DNA from: an uncultured Acidimicrobiia bacterium | GTDB lineage: Bacteria; Actinomycetota; Acidimicrobiia; Spongiisociales; ZC4RG35 | Assembly (NCBI GenBank): GCA_963744905.1 | Contig: CAVUUV010000010.1 | Span: 31,916 to 95,915, forward strand | Length of the DNA stretch: 64,000 nucleotides | Reading direction: 5' to 3' | Shown: positions 20,449 to 43,065 of the stretch, one piece after another | How the letters are laid out: each line of letters begins with the position of its first letter | Position numbering within the stretch: position 1 is the stretch's first letter | Notes under the pieces: model-generated | The model's input: only the letters and a program-made list of their open reading frames with translations | What the model was told of the DNA's origin: nothing | Database searches by the model: none | Translations under genes and position numbers: made by a program

Positions 20449-20643
20449 GTGAGTGAAACCCTGAAAGGCAAGGCCATCAAGGGCATCACACGTGCGTCCC
20501 GCCGATACGGAGAGGGGCGGGTTTGTGCTGATCCGAGTTGCGACACCAAGTTGAGCATGTACAACAAGCGCGACTATTGTCACGTGCACGCACCGGTGAA
20601 ATTCCCTAGGGTGCGCGGTAGGATCGTTCCTGAGGGGACGTGA
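20449..20643 (+). CDS. Small basic putative Zn-binding protein
   Basis: AAGGAGG RBS before GTG; C-x4-C...C-x2-H pattern. Confidence 0.65.
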   Translation: MSETLKGKAIKGITRASRRYGEGRVCADPSCDTKLSMYNKRDYCHVHAPVKFPRVRGRIVPEGT

Positions 20644-20665
20644 CAACGGAAGAAACACCAGATTT

Positions 20666-20751
20666 GGGCGTCGCGGTTTCAGGTTCTCTCCCCCTCCCCC
20701 GACATCGCGACGCTCATTGAGGAGGCCCCGGTCCCCCCGGCCGGGGTCTCC
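20666..20751 (+). ncRNA. Two hairpins with C-rich loops (6C-like RNA or structured 3' UTR)
   Basis: GCGTCGCG/CGCGACGC stem around TTCTCTCCCCCTCCCCC; second stem GGAGGCCCCGGT/GCCGGGGTCTCC with a C6 run. Confidence 0.4.
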
Positions 20752-20818
20752 GTTATGGCCGGGTCCACCAATCCGGGTGCTCCCCGACAGTCCCATCCTC
20801 TTCTGACAAAATCCCCTT

Positions 20819-34732: not shown

Positions 34733-36289
34733 ATGTCGGGAGGGGTGGAGATAGAAATCAGCCGCAAGCCGATGACCATTGACGAGGTGAGCTCGGTTGC
34801 CGAGGGGTCGCCGGTGCGACTGTCCGGGGAAGTCGTCGAACTGATCCTCCACAGCCGTCGAGTACTGGACGAGGCGATCGAGCGGGGCGACGCCATCTAC
34901 GGCGCTACCACCGGACTGGGTCACGCCCGCAACCACCAGCTCTCCGCCGGGGAGATGGAACTGATCCAGGCCACCTATGCGGAGATGCATGTGGGAGCCA
35001 TGGGTGGACAACTCCCGGTGGACCGGGTCCGCGCAGCGATGGTGGTCCGCCTGAACGGCTTCGCCCGAGGCGGGTCGGGGATCTCCCTGCCGGTGGCCGA
35101 GACTCTGGCCGCGTTTCTCAACCACGGCATCCACCCTCTCATCCCGGAACACGGCTCGGTGGGAGCGGGCGATCTGAGTCAGCTGGCGGTGCTCGCTCGT
35201 GCCCTCATCGGGAGGGGGCAGGTGGCGATGGCCGATGCCCGGCGACCCGCCGCCGAGGCCCTGGCCGGCCTCGGTCTGGCTCCGGTCGCGTTCAAACCCA
35301 AGGACGCCCTCACCGTCTTCTCCTCCAACGCCGTTGCGGTGGGCCACGCTGCTCTCCTGGTGACCCGGCTCGAGCAGCTGATGGACCTGGCCGATCTGGT
35401 GGCGGCCCTGGCGATGGAAGCCGTGTCGGCCAACACCTCGATCATCGATCCGGCAGTGGCCGTTGCCAGGGCGAGCAGCGGCCAGGAGGCCACCTCGGCC
35501 AACCTACGCGCCGCCCTGTCGGGTAGCACCCGGGTCGGGACCGGTCCGGGCGTCTCGGTCCAGGACCCACTCAGCTTCAGGGTGATTCCCCAGGTGCACG
35601 GTGCCCTGCGCGACATCGTCGACGGCTTCACCGATGCAGTGCTCTCCGAACTCAATGCGACTGCCGACAACCCCATGGTCGACCTGGCCACGGGACGTGT
35701 CTTGTCGAACGGGAACTTCCATCCGATGAACCTGGCCCTTGCCGCCGACTCGGTTCGGGTCGCTCTGGCCCATGTCGGGATGCTGTGCGACAGGAGAATG
35801 GGGCAACTCTGGGACAACCTGGTCAGTTCGATCCTGCCCCAGGAGGGCAAAGCAGATGTCGCCGCCCTCGCCCAGGGCGGGCGACCCGAGATGGCCGGGC
35901 TGGGGCTTCGCTATCCGGCCGCCAGCCGCTACACGCGCCTGCGCCATCTGGCCAACCCGATCACCCTGGACGTGCCGGTCCTGGATCTGTCGGTGGAAGA
36001 CCACGCCACCAACGCCCCCGAGGCTCTGGACCTGGTGGAGGAGGCGATAGACCTGGTCGAAGATCTGCTGGCGGTCGAGTTGCTGCTGGCCATTCCGACC
36101 CTCGGCCATCCCATACCCCTCGCCGATCTGGGCGAGGGCACCCGTTCTCTGGCGGACGGAGTGGTGAAGACTCTGGCCGGGCTGCCCTCCGATACCCAAC
36201 CCGACGCGGTGCACGGTCTGGTTCGGAAAGCCATGAAGCAGGGGTCCCCCGGATTCCGGGAGGCGACCGGCCGCTCCCACCGGAGCTAA
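34733..36289 (+). CDS. HAL/PAL-family ammonia-lyase homolog lacking the ASG (MIO) triad
   Basis: IYGATTGLG, GSVGAGDL, QDPLSFR, DNP, NGNFH, EDH motifs. Confidence 0.85.
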   Translation: MSGGVEIEISRKPMTIDEVSSVAEGSPVRLSGEVVELILHSRRVLDEAIERGDAIYGATTGLGHARNHQLSAGEMELIQATYAEMHVGAMGGQLPVDRVRAAMVVRLNGFARGGSGISLPVAETLAAFLNHGIHPLIPEHGSVGAGDLSQLAVLARALIGRGQVAMADARRPAAEALAGLGLAPVAFKPKDALTVFSSNAVAVGHAALLVTRLEQLMDLADLVAALAMEAVSANTSIIDPAVAVARASSGQEATSANLRAALSGSTRVGTGPGVSVQDPLSFRVIPQVHGALRDIVDGFTDAVLSELNATADNPMVDLATGRVLSNGNFHPMNLALAADSVRVALAHVGMLCDRRMGQLWDNLVSSILPQEGKADVAALAQGGRPEMAGLGLRYPAASRYTRLRHLANPITLDVPVLDLSVEDHATNAPEALDLVEEAIDLVEDLLAVELLLAIPTLGHPIPLADLGEGTRSLADGVVKTLAGLPSDTQPDAVHGLVRKAMKQGSPGFREATGRSHRS

Positions 36290-36318
36290 CCGTCGGTGAC
36301 GGGCACAATGGGCCACCG

Positions 36319-38101
36319 ATGGGTTGGCGGGACGACGAGCTTCAGACGATAACCGTTGACGACGCACCGGAGCCCGGTGGCGGAGACTCCGCTCGCCGAC
36401 CTTCGCTGTGGCTGGTGGGCACGCTGCTGTTGGGGGCGGTTCTCGCCATGGTGGGGGTGTCACGACGCGGCCCACCTCCCCCGACCACCGTTCCCCCGGT
36501 TCCCGAGATCGAAACTACGACCACGACCACCACCCTCCCGGCCCCCGACACGGCCTTCGACAGCGAGTCGGCCCTGACCTGGTCTCCGGCGTCGGGACTG
36601 ACCGACGTCACCCACCTCCGTTCAGTGACCCAACTCGGGCAGGCCTGGTATCTGGCGGCCGACACCGACAACGGCTCGGCTCTCTACACGTCGCCGACGG
36701 GGATTAGATGGGAACACCTGCCCGTCCCTGCCGGGCCGGGGGGGGAAGAGGCGGACCTGGGCTATCTGGTGCGGGTAGGAACGAAACTGGCCGCGGTAGG
36801 CAGCTTCGTGCGTCAAGATGGCAACCAAATCGGAGCGGTGTGGTGGTCACCGGATGGGAGTGAGTGGAACATGGATCCGCTGCCTGTCACAGAGCCCGCC
36901 GACGTCCCGCCCGGCACCCGAAGCACGGTGTACGTGACCGGGGCGGCCCGGGCCGGCGGCAACCTGGTGGTGACGGCAGGCGTGGTCTTCACCACCGTTC
37001 CCCGGCCGCTCACCAGCACCGGGGCGGGAGGAGCGGCTCCGAGCTGGGTGCCACCGGAGTGGGATGCCGCGGTGCAGTCATCGGAGGATCTACCGCTGAG
37101 CCTGTCATCGGAAGGGGTCGCCCTGGTGGTGGGGCCCTTCGTGGCCGATTTTCGGACATGGCAACAGCTCGGGTTCACCTACTACCGGAGCTCCACATAC
37201 GAGATGTGGGTGGGATACCCACCAGATCCGATGAATCCTGTCCCCAGTCCGGGAACCGGGATTCCGCCCCTTGGGAGCGCGCCCCGACAACGGCGATGGA
37301 TACGGCCTGACCTCCAGGTCCCGTCTGATGACATCATCCGACGGCACCCGGTGGGCACTGACCGACTCCCGCTCAGACGTGCAATCCGTGGCTCCCTGGC
37401 AGCGCGGCTGGGTCCGCAGCCTCGGCGATCAGATCGACTACTCGCCGGACGCCGATTGGGAAACCATCACGCCGGACAGTTTCCTGGGGCGGGACTGGCA
37501 TGTGGAGAACATCGAGTCCTCAGACCTGGGAATCGCCGGGCTGGCCATCGGGTTCGGGCCTGCGACCGAACCCGGCCGGGCGGACGTCTTGCGACAGGAG
37601 ACGGACGACGACGGGTCCGTCCTCTACACGCTCGATCCCGGCGCCGGGATGCTGTCGGTCCCCACGACGGAGGGAGGCGAGGTCAACTTCGACCTGAACC
37701 GGGGTGATATGTTCTACGTCTCGGCGAGTGGCGAATCCACCCTGATCCCGACCTCGTATGCCCAGCCGCCCGACACGCCGAACGGCTCGGTGTCTCTGCG
37801 GGGTACCGACCTCGTCTTCGGCGACGGAGAAGGCCACGAACTGGGGAGCATGCCGGTCAGCCGGTGGACCATCGCCTGGGAGGCTCTCATGTCCGGGCAT
37901 ACATTCAGGCCGGACATGGCTTTAGTCCACTCGCCCGACGGAGTGCGCTGGTCGGCACGTCGAGGGAGCGGGATCGCCGGATCGCTGGCTGAGGGCATCG
38001 ACTCGTTCGTCCTGGCCGACAGATTCGTTCTGGTGAGGCTGATCGGCGAAGACGCCCCGCCGGTGTGGGTGGGCTCGGGGCGCCCCCACTTCGGCGGGTA
38101 G
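36319..38101 (+). CDS. Membrane-anchored hypothetical protein with S.DG..W repeats (frameshift near 37270)
   Basis: N-terminal TM plus Thr/Pro linker; [14 protein letters not shown] in frame 1 and SSDGTRW, SPDGVRW in frame 2. Confidence 0.65.
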
Positions 38102-38111
38102 GATCCCCGCC

Positions 38112-38672
38112 GTGATCTTCTCCGACCACTCGATCCGGGAGGCCATCGCCGAGGGGCGGATCGCCATCGACCCGTTCGAGTCGTCCTTCGTACAACCGTC
38201 CAGTGTCGACCTGAGAGTCGACAGCGGCTTTCGGGTTTTCCAGAACCATCGCCACCCTTCCATCGATCCCCGCTCGCCCCAGGAAGACCTCACCAGGCTG
38301 GTCGAGGTGGGGAACGAGCCGTTCATGCTCCATCCCGGCGAGTTCGTGCTCGGCGCAACCCTGGAGAAGGTCCGACTGGGAGTCGACGTCGTCGCTCGCC
38401 TGGAGGGGAAATCCTCCCTGGGACGACTGGGGCTGTTGATCCACTCCACAGCCGGGTTCATCGATCCTGGCTTCGAAGGAGCCATCACCCTGGAGCTGTC
38501 CAACGTCGCCACATTGCCCATCGCCATCTATCCGGGGATGAAAATCGGTCAGATCAGCTTCTATCAGATGACAACGCCAGCCGATCATCCCTACGGGTCT
38601 CCCGAGCTGGGCTCCAAGTATCAGGGCCAGAGCGGACCCACTCCCAGCAGAGCCCACCGCGACTTTCCCTAA
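38112..38672 (+). CDS. dcd: dCTP deaminase
   Basis: [31 protein letters not shown] motifs. Confidence 0.95.
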
Positions 38673-38696
38673 AGAAGTCAAAGTGGGCGCCGATAA
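38670..38696 (+). promoter_or_regulatory. Sigma28 (FliA/WhiG)-type promoter
   Basis: Exact TAAA-N15-GCCGATAA. Confidence 0.65.
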
Positions 38697-38702
38697 GGTC
38701 AA

Positions 38703-38820
38703 CGACAAACCACGGACCCACGTTGATCCTCCTTCCTCGGAGTCCCTTCCTCCTCCGATGCTCCCCCTTCAGGATCCGTGGAGAGTGAGAGGCCCCGGCG
38801 TAACGCCGGGGCCTCTACAT
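38703..38820 (+). ncRNA. Candidate C/U-rich small RNA
   Basis: Lies between the sigma28-type promoter and a 13-bp hairpin; nested stems with CCTCC/CCTTCC motifs; no credible ORF. Confidence 0.5.
38788..38816. terminator. Hairpin terminator between convergent units
   Basis: AGAGGCCCCGGCG-TAA-CGCCGGGGCCTCT. Confidence 0.75.
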
Positions 38821-38883
38821 TTGTCTTCACCTCGCTCGATCTCTGCCCGGAGCCCGGCCCCGCGACCAGACCGGCCGTCATGA

Positions 38884-39525
38884 TCACTCGAGTCTCTCCC
38901 GAGGAGCCTTGCGCAGCTTGAATTCCCCGGGACGGGGACCGGGAGAGAACACCGCTGGAGACGTTGGCGTCGGCCCGGATTCGGCCTGGGTTACCCCGGA
39001 CCCGGGAACGTCGGCCCGGGGATCCTTGACACGGGCCGGGGACGGTCGTGGCGGTGATTCGAGGTCGGCAGCCTCGCTGTCGCCGAGCGAGGTCAGAAGG
39101 TGGTTGAGGCCGGCACAGACGTCTTCGAACCGCCGTGAACCGATCGCCTCTCCCCAGGCGGCCTCCAGGTCGGCCACCGCTTGTCCGGCTGCGTCGAGGA
39201 GCTCCCGTCCCCGCCGGGTCGGAAAGATGAGCTTGGCCCGCCCGTCCGATGGGTCCGGTCGCCGTTCCAGGTACCCGGTGTCCTCCAGTTGATCCACCAG
39301 CTCCGAGCAGGCTGCAAGGCTCAGGTTGGCGCGATCGGCCAAATCCGTGAGACGGATCCCGTTGATGCCGATATTCCCCCAGATCTGGAGGTGAGCGGGC
39401 CGAACGTCGAGGAATTCGGTTTCCTCGGCTCGCTGCATGAGAAAGGAGCGGAACTCGTGCAGGAGCCGCCCCAGCAGCTGACCAATCGCCAATCGATGCT
39501 CGGGCAATCCTCTTGACAGGGCCAT
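38884..39525 (-). CDS. MarR family transcriptional regulator
   Basis: GIRLTDLA...LVDQLEDTGYLERRPDPSDGRAKLI. Confidence 0.88.
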   Translation of the reverse strand: MALSRGLPEHRLAIGQLLGRLLHEFRSFLMQRAEETEFLDVRPAHLQIWGNIGINGIRLTDLADRANLSLAACSELVDQLEDTGYLERRPDPSDGRAKLIFPTRRGRELLDAAGQAVADLEAAWGEAIGSRRFEDVCAGLNHLLTSLGDSEAADLESPPRPSPARVKDPRADVPGSGVTQAESGPTPTSPAVFSPGPRPGEFKLRKAPRERLE

Positions 39526-40434: not shown

Positions 40435-43065
40435 TCAGGTGACGTCCCGTCCCAGGTCGGCGAAGCGTGTGAACTCGGGCAGGAAGGTCATGCGCACGGT
40501 TCCCGTGGCACCAGCCCGGTGCTTGGCAACGATCACCTCGGCCAGGCCCTTGTTCTCCTGGTTCTCGGGGTGGTAGTACTCATCTCGGTAGATGAACATC
40601 ACGACGTCGGCATCCTGTTCCAGCGAGTTGTGGGCGACTATCCCGTTGGCAACGAAGTTGTGGGTGTCTTCCACCGTGGCGTCAAAGGTGGGCATCTCAC
40701 CCATTGGCACGATCTCCACGACTTGATCCCACAGGACATCCGACGTGGCGAGATCGGTCAGCTGCGCATCGTTGAGTATCTCGCCGATCTTCAACAAGCG
40801 AGGACGGGAGAACCTTCGCGGCCTTCTCTTCGTTCCGAGCAGGTATGATCCGCAGTAGCGCTCACCTAGTTCGGCCGCGAGTTGGCGGTGGGTAATACCG
40901 GCCTGACCGGCAGACCGTTTGACTCTCTCGGCAACCTCCCACGGGACCAGATCGACGTTCGGATTCGGCTTGATTCCCTGTTGGACCTCGAGTGCCTCCT
41001 GGACCACGTCGCCACGCCTTCCATGGGATCCCACCAACTCGAGGAACCGGACGGTGTCGTCTCGGCCGCTGATGCGGACGTGCCAGGAGTCACGGTATCC
41101 ACGTTTCCGCGCCCGGGAGACGCGAGAGCGGATATCAAGGCGAAGGAGCAAACGCTGAACGTCAGCTGCAAGGCGGCGACTTGTACTGGCAAAGTAGATG
41201 CGAGTATGCGGACCGCGACCGTTGCGCGTGATGGTTATGGAGCCGTCGGTGGACCACAGATGGTGAAGGAAGAGAGCGATCTGGCCCTCATTCAGGCCCT
41301 GAATTGCTTCCGGGACGAACTTGTCGTGGGCCCGCGAACCCCAAAGACCCAACGGCTCCAACCAGTTGCAGATCGGATGATGCCTGTTGTGAGTCAAATG
41401 ATACGGAGCAGCAAGGTGCAACTGCCACGTCCGCCCATATCGGCGTTCATTGATCGCGACTCCAAATCGTCTGGTCGCCGACTTGGCGACCGCCTCTCGA
41501 TTGGCGGGATCCGCCGTTGCGTAGCGAACTGTGGGACCTATCGAACCGTCGCCGATGAGGTGAGCCAGCAGTATGAGCTCATCGACGTCCCAGGTCGCAC
41601 CCGCCGTCGGCTCCGGGATCCGGCGCGGGACCGCCAAATGGTCGCCCTTCTCTAGTTGGTCGAGGCGGAGCCATCCGTTGAGAGTCAAGAACTTGTGATT
41701 GGCAGTGGCATCTACCTCGTGACCCGAGGCAAGTCTCAGGCGATACACAGGCTTGATGCCGGACGGGAATGCTTTCACCAGTCGTCGAGCAGCAAGTCGC
41801 CACCGTGAGTCGACGGACCACACCAACGGCCGCTCCTGAGACAGCACCAGCTCGCCGAGGGTTACCTCGGCGCCGGTGTCGGCTCGCAAGAGGCGCGTGC
41901 TGGCCGGCATGCAACCACTTTCACGTAGGTCAGAGAGGCGGGGACGCTTGTCCTCACGGCTCTCCAGGGACCGATTCAGCTGAGAGAGGCCCACGACCGG
42001 CACATCCAGTTCTCGGGCCAGGTTCTTGAGGTTCCGACTGATCTCGGCGATCTCCTGCTGTCGATTCTCTCGCGACGCTCCTTGCATCAACTGCAGGTAA
42101 TCGACCGCCACCATCGAGAGCCCCGACTTGCGCTTGAGCCTGCGGCACTTGGCCCGAATGTCGGTGATGGTCACCACGGGTGAATCGTCGATGAAGATCG
42201 GCGCCTTGTACATCCGTGAGGCGGCATCCACCACCCGCTGCCAGAGCGGTCCCAGCTGTCCGGATCGCAGCTTCATCGAATCCACCCGGCCCACTGAGGA
42301 GAGGATGCGCTGGACCAACTCCTCCTTGGACATCTCCAGACTGAACAGCGCCACTGGCCTCCCCTGGGCGGCGGCATTGGTGGCGATGTTCAACATCAAT
42401 GCGCTCTTCCCCATCGCCGGCCTGGCGGCGATGATGATCAGGTTGGCGTTCTGCAGGCCGGCCAGCTTCTTGTCCAGGTCGCGGAACCCGGTCGCCAACC
42501 CGGTGATCTCCGAGCCCTGCGCCTCCAGGGTCTCGATCTGTTCCAGCACCTGGGAGAAGAGTGGGCCGACCTCCAACAGGCTCTGGGAGGCCCGCTTCTC
42601 TGCCACACCCAGCACCGTCTGCTCGGCCCGATCCATGACCGAGTGGATCTCGTCGTCGAGGTCGAAGGCGATGGTGGCCACGGTGCCGCCCGCTCTGATC
42701 AGATCCCGCCGGCGGGCGGCGTCCTCGACGATGTCGGCGTAGTGGATCACGTTGGAGGTGACGGGCACCACGTCGACCAGACGGGTCAGGTAGCTGACCC
42801 CGCCCACCTTGTCCAGCTCTCCCGAGCGGCGCAGATCCTCTGAGAGAGTCACGGCGTCTATGGCCTGGTTGGCGTCGTAGAGACGGCGCATCGCCTCGAA
42901 GATCGACTGATGGGCCGGGACGTAGAAGTCGTCGCCGCCGAGACGGTCCATCACCTCGTTGGCCGCTTCCACCGACAACAGCACGGCCCCCAGGACCGAC
43001 TCTTCGGCTTCCCGGCTGTGGGGCGGGACCCGGGCCGCCGAGCGAGGGGCGCTGTCTCCGTTCAA
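40435..43065 (-). CDS. dnaB: Replicative DNA helicase with intein
   Basis: PPHSREAE, AARPAMGKS, VDYLQLM, SQLNR, RESG|intein|SLEQDAD. Confidence 0.95.
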   Translation of the reverse strand: MNGDSAPRSAARVPPHSREAEESVLGAVLLSVEAANEVMDRLGGDDFYVPAHQSIFEAMRRLYDANQAIDAVTLSEDLRRSGELDKVGGVSYLTRLVDVVPVTSNVIHYADIVEDAARRRDLIRAGGTVATIAFDLDDEIHSVMDRAEQTVLGVAEKRASQSLLEVGPLFSQVLEQIETLEAQGSEITGLATGFRDLDKKLAGLQNANLIIIAARPAMGKSALMLNIATNAAAQGRPVALFSLEMSKEELVQRILSSVGRVDSMKLRSGQLGPLWQRVVDAASRMYKAPIFIDDSPVVTITDIRAKCRRLKRKSGLSMVAVDYLQLMQGASRENRQQEIAEISRNLKNLARELDVPVVGLSQLNRSLESREDKRPRLSDLRESGCMPASTRLLRADTGAEVTLGELVLSQERPLVWSVDSRWRLAARRLVKAFPSGIKPVYRLRLASGHEVDATANHKFLTLNGWLRLDQLEKGDHLAVPRRIPEPTAGATWDVDELILLAHLIGDGSIGPTVRYATADPANREAVAKSATRRFGVAINERRYGRTWQLHLAAPYHLTHNRHHPICNWLEPLGLWGSRAHDKFVPEAIQGLNEGQIALFLHHLWSTDGSITITRNGRGPHTRIYFASTSRRLAADVQRLLLRLDIRSRVSRARKRGYRDSWHVRISGRDDTVRFLELVGSHGRRGDVVQEALEVQQGIKPNPNVDLVPWEVAERVKRSAGQAGITHRQLAAELGERYCGSYLLGTKRRPRRFSRPRLLKIGEILNDAQLTDLATSDVLWDQVVEIVPMGEMPTFDATVEDTHNFVANGIVAHNSLEQDADVVMFIYRDEYYHPENQENKGLAEVIVAKHRAGATGTVRMTFLPEFTRFADLGRDVT
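40627..41913 (-). mobile_element. DnaB intein with LAGLIDADG-type endonuclease (429 aa)
   Basis: Begins CMPAS, block B TANH, LAHLIGDG and LWSTDG, ends HN before Ser+1; GC lower than the exteins. Confidence 0.93.

Follow-up and report, generated by a model that had tools for sequence, protein, structure and literature searches.

Locus Organization

In the window analyzed here, i.e., the whole stretch of 64,000 nucleotides (nt) from an uncultured Acidimicrobiia bacterium (assembly GCA_963744905.1, contig CAVUUV010000010.1, positions 31,916 to 95,915 of the forward strand), the dCTP deaminase gene dcd is followed by a gap which, as judged by sequence comparison, harbors a so far undescribed conserved small RNA (sRNA) gene with a conserved WhiG-type promoter. 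WhiG is a sigma28-family factor that is controlled in Actinomycetota by cyclic di-GMP (c-di-GMP) via the anti-sigma factor RsiG. An earlier note, made by a model from the letters of this DNA, had proposed at this place a sigma28/WhiG-dependent sRNA directed against Shine-Dalgarno (SD) sequences, with an exact TAAA-N15-GCCGATAA at 38670-38696 whose -35 element overlaps the dcd stop codon and which points into a gap with no credible gene. The motif is present exactly as claimed, and the gap stands as well: the open reading frame (ORF) 38683-38883 (66 aa, GTG start) belongs to no Pfam family, and the first real gene beyond the gap is a convergent ORF of the MarR family. The coordinates of all these features are collected in Table 1.

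Only one terminator-like site was found on the + strand between 38000 and 39700 by the terminator scan, and none lies between dcd and the RNA. Transcripts of dcd should therefore run into the RNA and share its terminator. The -35 element overlapping the dcd stop and the single terminator common to dcd and the RNA are the features of an sRNA embedded in a gene's 3' end. The promoter of some relatives does not overlap the end of dcd and is found further downstream.

Table 1. Features of the dcd locus (positions in the window).
Feature	Positions	Strand	Basis or remark
dcd (dCTP deaminase)	38112-38672	+	ORF list; Pfam DCD, E 6.1e-49
dcd stop codon TAA	38670-38672	+	falls inside the -35 element
-35 element CTAAAG, WhiG/sigma28-type; core TAAA at 38670-38673	38669-38674	+	sequence
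-10 element GCCGATAA, 15 nt after the -35 core	38689-38696	+	sequence
Predicted RNA 5' end, ACAA(A/C)C block	38705-38710	+	start inferred from conserved block
Outer stem, 5' arm CCACGGA	38710-38716	+	minimum free energy (MFE) fold; covariation
Tract 1, single-stranded pyrimidine, GAUCCUCCUUCC; core CCTCCTTCC at 38728-38736	38725-38736	+	unpaired in MFE fold
Central hairpin, stem UCGGAG/CUCCGA, loop UCCCUUCCUC	38737-38758	+	MFE fold
Central stem, 5' arm TCGGAG	38737-38742	+	sequence
Central loop TCCCTTCCTC	38743-38752	+	sequence
Central stem, 3' arm CTCCGA	38753-38758	+	sequence
Tract 2, in the central hairpin, CCCTTCCTCCTCC	38744-38756	+	sequence
Tract 3, single-stranded pyrimidine, CTCCCCCTTC (as RNA CUCCCCCUUC)	38761-38770	+	unpaired in MFE fold
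Outer stem, 3' arm UCCGUGG	38775-38781	+	MFE fold; covariation
Intrinsic terminator, hairpin 38788-38816 and tail ACAUUUGUCUUC	38788-38828	+	terminator scan
MarR-family ORF, convergent, next real gene after the gap	38884-39525	-	Pfam

Structure of the RNA

The outer stem, the inner stem with its loop, the three pyrimidine tracts and the 13-bp terminator described in the earlier note were all found at the positions it gave. The terminator hairpin has 13 pairs, of which 11 are G-C, and a loop of 3 (terminator scan). On the + strand the region folds at -56.8 kcal/mol, compared with -38.8 +/- 3.75 in 200 shuffled sequences, none of which folds as low (z = -4.8), while the - strand gives z = -2.9. 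A conserved ACAA(C) block lying 7-8 nt after the -10 element is taken as the 5' end of the RNA, near 38705.

Homologues from relatives keep the same helices. In a 31-sequence alignment, 95.9% of the cells form standard pairs vs 68.4% after shuffling, with 0/500 shuffles as high, and pairing drops to 31-54% when the partners are slid by 1-3 columns. All outer-helix pairs (7/7) and all modelled terminator pairs (12/12) show compensatory changes, as counted on an alignment fitted to the model. The outer stem keeps the same layout with diverse sequences, e.g., CCACGGA/UCCGUGG, AACCGCCUGC/GCGGGCGGUU and CCACCUACC/GGUAGGUGG. The stem of the central hairpin is invariant, with four fixed pairs, two with changes on one side only, and pairing in 100% of cells. 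The expectation in the earlier note that the loops would be kept in relatives is thus borne out by an invariant central hairpin, a covarying outer stem and a covarying terminator. Folded separately by MFE, most of the 31 sequences give the same architecture; the exceptions are L043, L044, L051, L059, L065 and L106. Between the stems, the RNA is on average 84% pyrimidine and 8% G over the 31 homologues, each of which has at least one CCUCC, and the flanking tracts are conserved in composition, not in sequence. With regard to the alignments themselves, MAFFT alignments A1 and A3 misaligned the outer stem, and RNAalifold on A1 gave only the inner hairpin and the terminator; they were replaced by a hand-given structure on A2 and then by model-based alignments. 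The element is non-coding and structured, carries its own promoter and an intrinsic terminator, and is conserved with covariation, as would be expected of a trans-acting base-pairing sRNA.

Conservation and Distribution

The genome counts given below are from samples, and non-detection does not equal absence. A BLAST search with 38660-38840 against 61 relatives recovered the RNA part in G001, G002, G004, G005, G026 and G012, in matches spanning 5 genera with E-values from 1.6e-48 to 4.7e-7. The element was located directly after dcd in 10 loci by tblastn with Dcd, and it adjoins dcd in most loci. A first covariance model, R1, was built from 7 sequences with a hand-given structure, starting 3 nt after the -10 element so that no promoter lay inside it. 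Among its best-match loci in the family (n = 30), the central hairpin together with the pyrimidine-rich architecture is present in 24, and the other 6 comprise 4 terminators only and 2 other CU-rich RNAs. The R1 count of 66 out of 151 genomes at E <= 1e-3 was dropped since many matches were to terminators only, and a stricter model, R2, was used instead (31 true sequences, RNA only, E <= 1e-6). R2 matches 39 of the 151 family genomes, each of them exactly once, and these belong to 16 of 38 genera; one of the 39, G063, has another CU-rich RNA with neither dcd nor promoter. In the order sample R2 matches 10 of 151 genomes, 7 of them from the same family including the source genome (G000), and in the class sample 7 of 151, 5 of them from the family; matches outside the family are weak in both samples. 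The tallies of BLAST, R1 and WhiG, and probably that of R2, include genomes flagged as unpublished (G034, G039, G050, G135, G162, G173, G174), from which no sequence was aligned or quoted.

A pattern scan of 185,579 species genomes yielded 28 loci, with 12 full-length R1 matches, all titled Acidimicrobiia or Acidimicrobiaceae. The same scan on metagenome contigs yielded 40 loci, 10 of them full-length. Pattern matches in Streptomyces axinellae and other non-Acidimicrobiia were taken as chance, as they have no full-length model match, and L146, outside the family, was considered a false positive. The non-Acidimicrobiia loci L073 and L091 give only weak full-span matches (E 0.004 and 0.007), and at L145, also outside the family, a coding gene is followed by a C-rich element that lacks a sigma28 motif. 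From these comparisons, the RNA element is real and conserved.

Other RNAs of similar kind were encountered on the way. L049 (G063:C35:19095-19225), L144 (G186) and L119 (G125) combine a CU-rich hairpin, CCUCC motifs and a terminator; their sigma28 promoter is lacking or only imperfect and they are not placed after dcd. The RNA at L144, which lies near dcd but divergent from it and has an imperfect promoter, may be a distant relative. Just downstream of dcd in g32, g27, g30 and g13 (L148-L151), genera without the WhiG-driven RNA, a conserved block TAGCGCGTTTGCGTATAGTTCGAAAT is followed by a different C-rich element (GAGUCCCCCUC, GCUUCACGGGCAAGUGACA, ACCCCUCC) and then a terminator. No Rfam family was found for these elements in a sensitive scan, and they may be diverged homologues with a swapped promoter. 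At L152 (G010), the region downstream of dcd contains three direct repeats of GAGCGGGTGAAGGGAATCGAACCCTCGCCCCGAGCTTG, which resemble copies of the 3' half of a tRNA.

A Conserved WhiG-Type Promoter

The full promoter pattern occurs once in the window, with no match in any of 100 shuffles, and once on both strands of the whole genome (3,576,160 bp, 65.8% G+C), in which GCCGATAA alone occurs 45 times. It equals the WhiG2 consensus T(A/C)AA-N16-GCCGATAA, as given in a preprint (Denis et al., 2026), and is unlike sigma-70 hexamers; a sigma-70 scan finds nothing at the site. In all 24 loci chosen by an RNA-only covariance model, T(A/C)AA-N15/16-NYCGAYR ends 2-14 nt before the modelled RNA, and their summary consensus is CT(A/C)AA-N15/16-GCCGATRR. 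Both blocks and their spacing are hence kept with a spacer near 0 bits, in agreement with the prediction in the earlier note that the promoter would be conserved in relatives. The motif stays with the RNA at 12, 32 or 86 nt from the dcd stop (four loci spanning 12-86 nt), as well as in three g5 genomes where the RNA lies about 850 nt from dcd (L050, L051, L054). It is also present in all 9 evaluable metagenome copies.

Across 34 orthologous loci, the -35 element reads C (32/34), T (34/34), then C or A, then A,A (34/34), and the -10 element has CGA in 34/34, preceded by C in 32, with G in 29 and T in 30. The spacer between these two conserved blocks is 15 or 16 nt long with about 0 bits per position in the information profile, and in most loci the third conserved block, ACAA(A/C)C, starts 7-8 nt downstream of the -10 element. 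With a position matrix made from the orthologous promoters, the RNA site ranks first in the genome at 24.6 bits, a score to which the site itself contributed through the matrix.

Regarding the next-best matrix sites, they precede genes for a HEAT-repeat protein, a membrane protein, a VanY peptidase and a Flp pilin (PF04964, 34.6 bits). A search of 5 genomes found 4 orthologues of the HEAT-repeat gene, and all 4 keep the WhiG-type candidate promoter before it (G000:C3:222035, +, outside the window), 6-16 nt upstream of the estimated start; the one before the VanY-like peptidase gene (G000:C3:642212, -) is kept in 2/3 orthologues. A further candidate lies before the Flp/Fap pilin gene (G000:C5:517092, +). 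The promoter consensus is, by prediction, in use elsewhere in this Acidimicrobiia family.

The Sigma Factor and Its Putative Anti-Sigma Factor

The sigma28-family gene presupposed by the earlier note is present in the genome. It is found at G000:C5:153038-153706, in the gene order dprA-whiG-rpsB-tsf, and scores 271.5 bits with TIGR02479 (cut-off 189.6), being the only match above the cut-off; six further TIGR02479 matches, to other sigma-70-family genes, score 90-128 bits. Among solved structures, the factor is closest to chains 6pfv and 6pfj, at 285.7 bits vs 155.6 for E. coli FliA, and these are the structures of Streptomyces RsiG-WhiG (PMC7005675). No match to flagellin (PF00669) or FlhA (PF00771) was found in this 95%-complete genome. 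Given the WhiG-like relatives and the lack of flagellin and FlhA matches, the sigma factor can be refined to the WhiG type, not the flagellar FliA. Some relatives have a second FliA/WhiG-like paralogue of about 187 bits. The 14 family genomes that lack WhiG all lie outside the set of 39 genomes with the RNA.

RsiG was sought by its published motif (PMC8325347). Starting at nt 263761 of G000:C7 (+), a 196-aa open segment contains the motif E(X)3S(X)2R(X)3[Q/H](X)3D twice, first at residue 57 and again at residue 159, and it is the only one with two copies among the 5 motif-bearing segments of the genome. This segment is a candidate twin-motif RsiG anti-sigma factor, a form that has been reported in 3/4 Acidimicrobiales species (PMC8325347).

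Comparison with Known RNAs and WhiG Targets

In the window, all Rfam families stay below their gathering scores, as they do in a sensitive scan of the locus. The best match, RF02344 (alpha-r14) at 38708-38818, has 29.8 bits (E 0.0018) compared with a gathering score of 58.8, and a description of the RNA was not found in the literature search. The RNA can thus still be called undescribed, as it was in the earlier note. Alpha-r14/NfeR1 ('cuckoo'), from alpha-proteobacteria, resembles the RNA in being about 120 nt long with three exposed CCUCC-type motifs and a terminator, and the NfeR1 family of rhizobia, which has three anti-SD loops, is reported to pair with mRNAs. However, alpha-r14 belongs to a different phylum than the Acidimicrobiia RNA, its alignment to the latter consists mostly of non-canonical pairs, marked in the first two stems, and it has three hairpins each with a CCUCCUCCC loop, whereas the RNA described here has one hairpin and two strands in the loop of the outer stem. 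No sigma28 promoter is known to us for alpha-r14.

The 6C RNA (also B11) of Actinomycetota, which we take to be Rfam RF01066, is like this RNA a C-rich sRNA of high-GC Gram-positives. It has two hairpins with C-rich loops, and differs from the RNA found after dcd in architecture and genomic context. To our knowledge, a sigma28-type promoter has not been reported for it. 6C is absent from the 11 matches at E <= 10 in 38300-39300 and absent at the gathering score in the window. It is reported to bind mRNAs through its C-rich loops (PMC6486639).

With regard to the sRNAs under sigma28 control in E. coli, these belong to the flagellar regulon of a proteobacterium, whereas the factor considered here is a WhiG orthologue in a genome with no flagellin or FlhA match, and there is no sequence relation between them and the RNA. 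They are FliX, MotR, UhpU and FlgO. They derive from untranslated regions (PMC10578931). In Streptomyces coelicolor, the expression of the sRNA scr1906 needs whiG; yet no WhiG-type promoter was found ahead of scr1906 and an indirect effect was proposed (PMC2602773), while the consensus described here is exact and conserved.

WhiG targets published or predicted so far are all protein genes, whereas here the target would be an RNA. They include whiH, whiI and vnz15005 in S. venezuelae (PMC7005675), and in Rubrobacter genes for type IV pili and c-di-GMP (PMC8325347). The candidate WhiG promoter found before the Flp pilin gene echoes this pilus link of Rubrobacter (PMC8325347). Both promoter scans only considered sites with a start codon in the 200 bp that follow (PMC8325347; Denis et al., 2026), and an sRNA target could therefore not have been found by either. 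The words sRNA, small RNA, Acidimicrobi and dcd are all absent from the main text of the preprint (Denis et al., 2026).

Proposed Pairing with Ribosome-Binding Sites

Tract 1 resembles the 3' tail of the organism's own 16S rRNA, GGAUCACCUCCUUUCU (the 16S 3' end was read in L159). The tracts resemble this tail and would pair with ribosome-binding sites of the GGAGG type. Exact complementarity of at least 11 nt to the RNA occurs at 191 non-self sites in the genome; this exact-seed scan is a crude stand-in for target prediction with IntaRNA or CopraRNA. The longest complementary site, CATCGGAGGAGGAAG, is 15 nt long and lies 6 nt upstream of the start codon ATG in a lipoprotein gene of 171 aa (G000:C3:990501-991016, - strand), the segment tied to its pairing being CUUCCUCCUCCGAUG. 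The site is identical in G001, and in G005 the site and the RNA have changed together (mRNA CGAUCGG vs RNA CCGAUCG). The lipoprotein was rejected as a family-wide target beyond genera g1 and g4, with only an ordinary SD in 7 other genomes, and no specific target with complementarity conserved across the family was found. RNAduplex over-extended the pairings in 90-nt mRNA windows, and ribosome-binding sites were read directly instead. An anti-SD mode of action is plausible from the composition of the tracts and fits the invariant hairpin.

Interpretation and Alternatives

The region 38669-38828 (+) is probably a single-copy sRNA gene that would be transcribed by WhiG and whose product would act in trans by pairing with SD sequences. 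An RNA of about 120 nt, roughly from 38705 to 38825, would be made from its own WhiG promoter overlapping the dcd stop codon and would end at the intrinsic terminator common to dcd read-through, in the layout of an sRNA embedded in a 3' end with a promoter of its own. The outer stem would close a large loop holding open three pyrimidine-rich, G-poor segments, namely two unpaired strands and the loop of the central hairpin, each with a CCUCC/CUCC like the 16S 3' tail. In other Actinomycetota, a fall in c-di-GMP frees WhiG from the c-di-GMP-armed anti-sigma factor RsiG. Once WhiG is freed the RNA may accumulate, and its tracts may pair with the G-rich SD regions of mRNAs and block the entry of ribosomes.

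Several points weigh against this interpretation. The start and end of the transcript and its dependence on WhiG in vivo, like its targets and mode of action, are all inferred from sequence, and the U tract of the terminator is weak. Covariation was counted on a model-fitted alignment, which is biased towards the modelled structure, and 10 of the 34 promoters come from loci picked by a regular expression that required the promoter, so that the unbiased set is the 24 model-only loci. The link with WhiG is statistically weak, WhiG being present in 136 of 151 family genomes and the RNA in 39, and the genomes are not independent. At the same locus, genera g13, g27, g30 and g32 have the different C-rich element with no sigma28 motif, and the locus is therefore not tied to WhiG control in all genera. 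Complementarity to SD sequences is generic, so that many of the 191 sites would be expected in any case. As for the lipoprotein mRNA, G026, G004, G012 and four more distant genera retain a generic SD but not the extended pairing.

If the RNA is real and driven by WhiG, its tracts could still titrate a protein (e.g., one that binds pyrimidines, like ribosomal protein S1) or another RNA (e.g., a G-rich one) without pairing with ribosome-binding sites. The flanking tracts, conserved in their 84% pyrimidine composition and not in sequence, would fit a ligand of low specificity, and no target keeps extended complementarity across the family. However, the central hairpin is invariant in sequence including its stem, which suggests sequence-specific pairing, no candidate protein partner was identified here, and known C-rich RNAs have been reported to pair with mRNAs, namely NfeR1/alpha-r14 and 6C (PMC6486639 for the latter). 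Titration is on balance unlikely, although it deserves to be kept in mind. It is distinctly improbable that the element amounts to no more than a 3' untranslated region of dcd with its terminator, and with a sigma28-like motif that is not a working promoter and an sRNA arising by processing or not at all. While the element lies directly after dcd in most loci with no terminator in between, the promoter blocks and their spacing are kept in 24/24 unbiased loci around a spacer that is free to vary, the exact consensus occurs once in the genome, and the motif travels with the RNA and not with the dcd stop, be it over the 12-86 nt of four loci or the about 850 nt of L050, L051 and L054.

A real promoter might also be read by the housekeeping sigma factor, or by another one of a specificity similar to that of WhiG, as the six weaker TIGR02479 matches and the second paralogue in some relatives could indicate. 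Yet the source genome has one match above the FliA/WhiG cut-off, the motif is the published WhiG2 consensus and the sigma-70 scan finds nothing at the site, which makes a different sigma factor slightly less probable still. As for a small protein encoded by ORF 38683-38883, the ORF exists; but besides having no Pfam family, it crosses the terminator hairpin, the indels among homologues are not multiples of three, and base pairs are conserved rather than codons, leaving a negligible chance for a coding function.

Should the sRNA be confirmed as WhiG-dependent, it would be the first direct sRNA member of a WhiG regulon and would extend c-di-GMP signalling in Actinomycetota to the post-transcriptional level. 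It can be further hypothesized, although we consider this rather unlikely, that the c-di-GMP/RsiG/WhiG switch of non-sporulating Acidimicrobiia for which no flagellar genes were detected acts mainly through a riboregulator and not through proteins, its three mimics of the 16S tail competing with ribosomes for SD sequences. The level of the second messenger would then be tied to a genome-wide shift of translation from SD-led to leaderless mRNAs. The literature search on 'Acidimicrobiia' and 'small RNA' found no work on this subject, and the RNA would offer a first handle on RNA regulation in this widespread and mostly uncultured class.

Other Features of the Window

A second C-rich RNA candidate is present at 20449-20770 (+) of the window, where a conserved 64-aa ORF (20449-20643), which has no Pfam family and ends in ..CHVHAPVKFPRVRGRIVPEGT, directly precedes a long hairpin (loop UUCUCUCCCCCUCCCCC) and then a terminator. 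The MFE z-score of the candidate is -2.6, and it has no Rfam match and no sigma28 motif. The same arrangement is found in about 10 family genomes (L098, L107-L109, L112, L116-L118, L120, L125). Upstream of dcd, a 640-aa ORF without Pfam family occupies 35785-37707 (+). The DnaB helicase gene at 40435-43065 (-) is split by an intein with a LAGLIDADG endonuclease domain.

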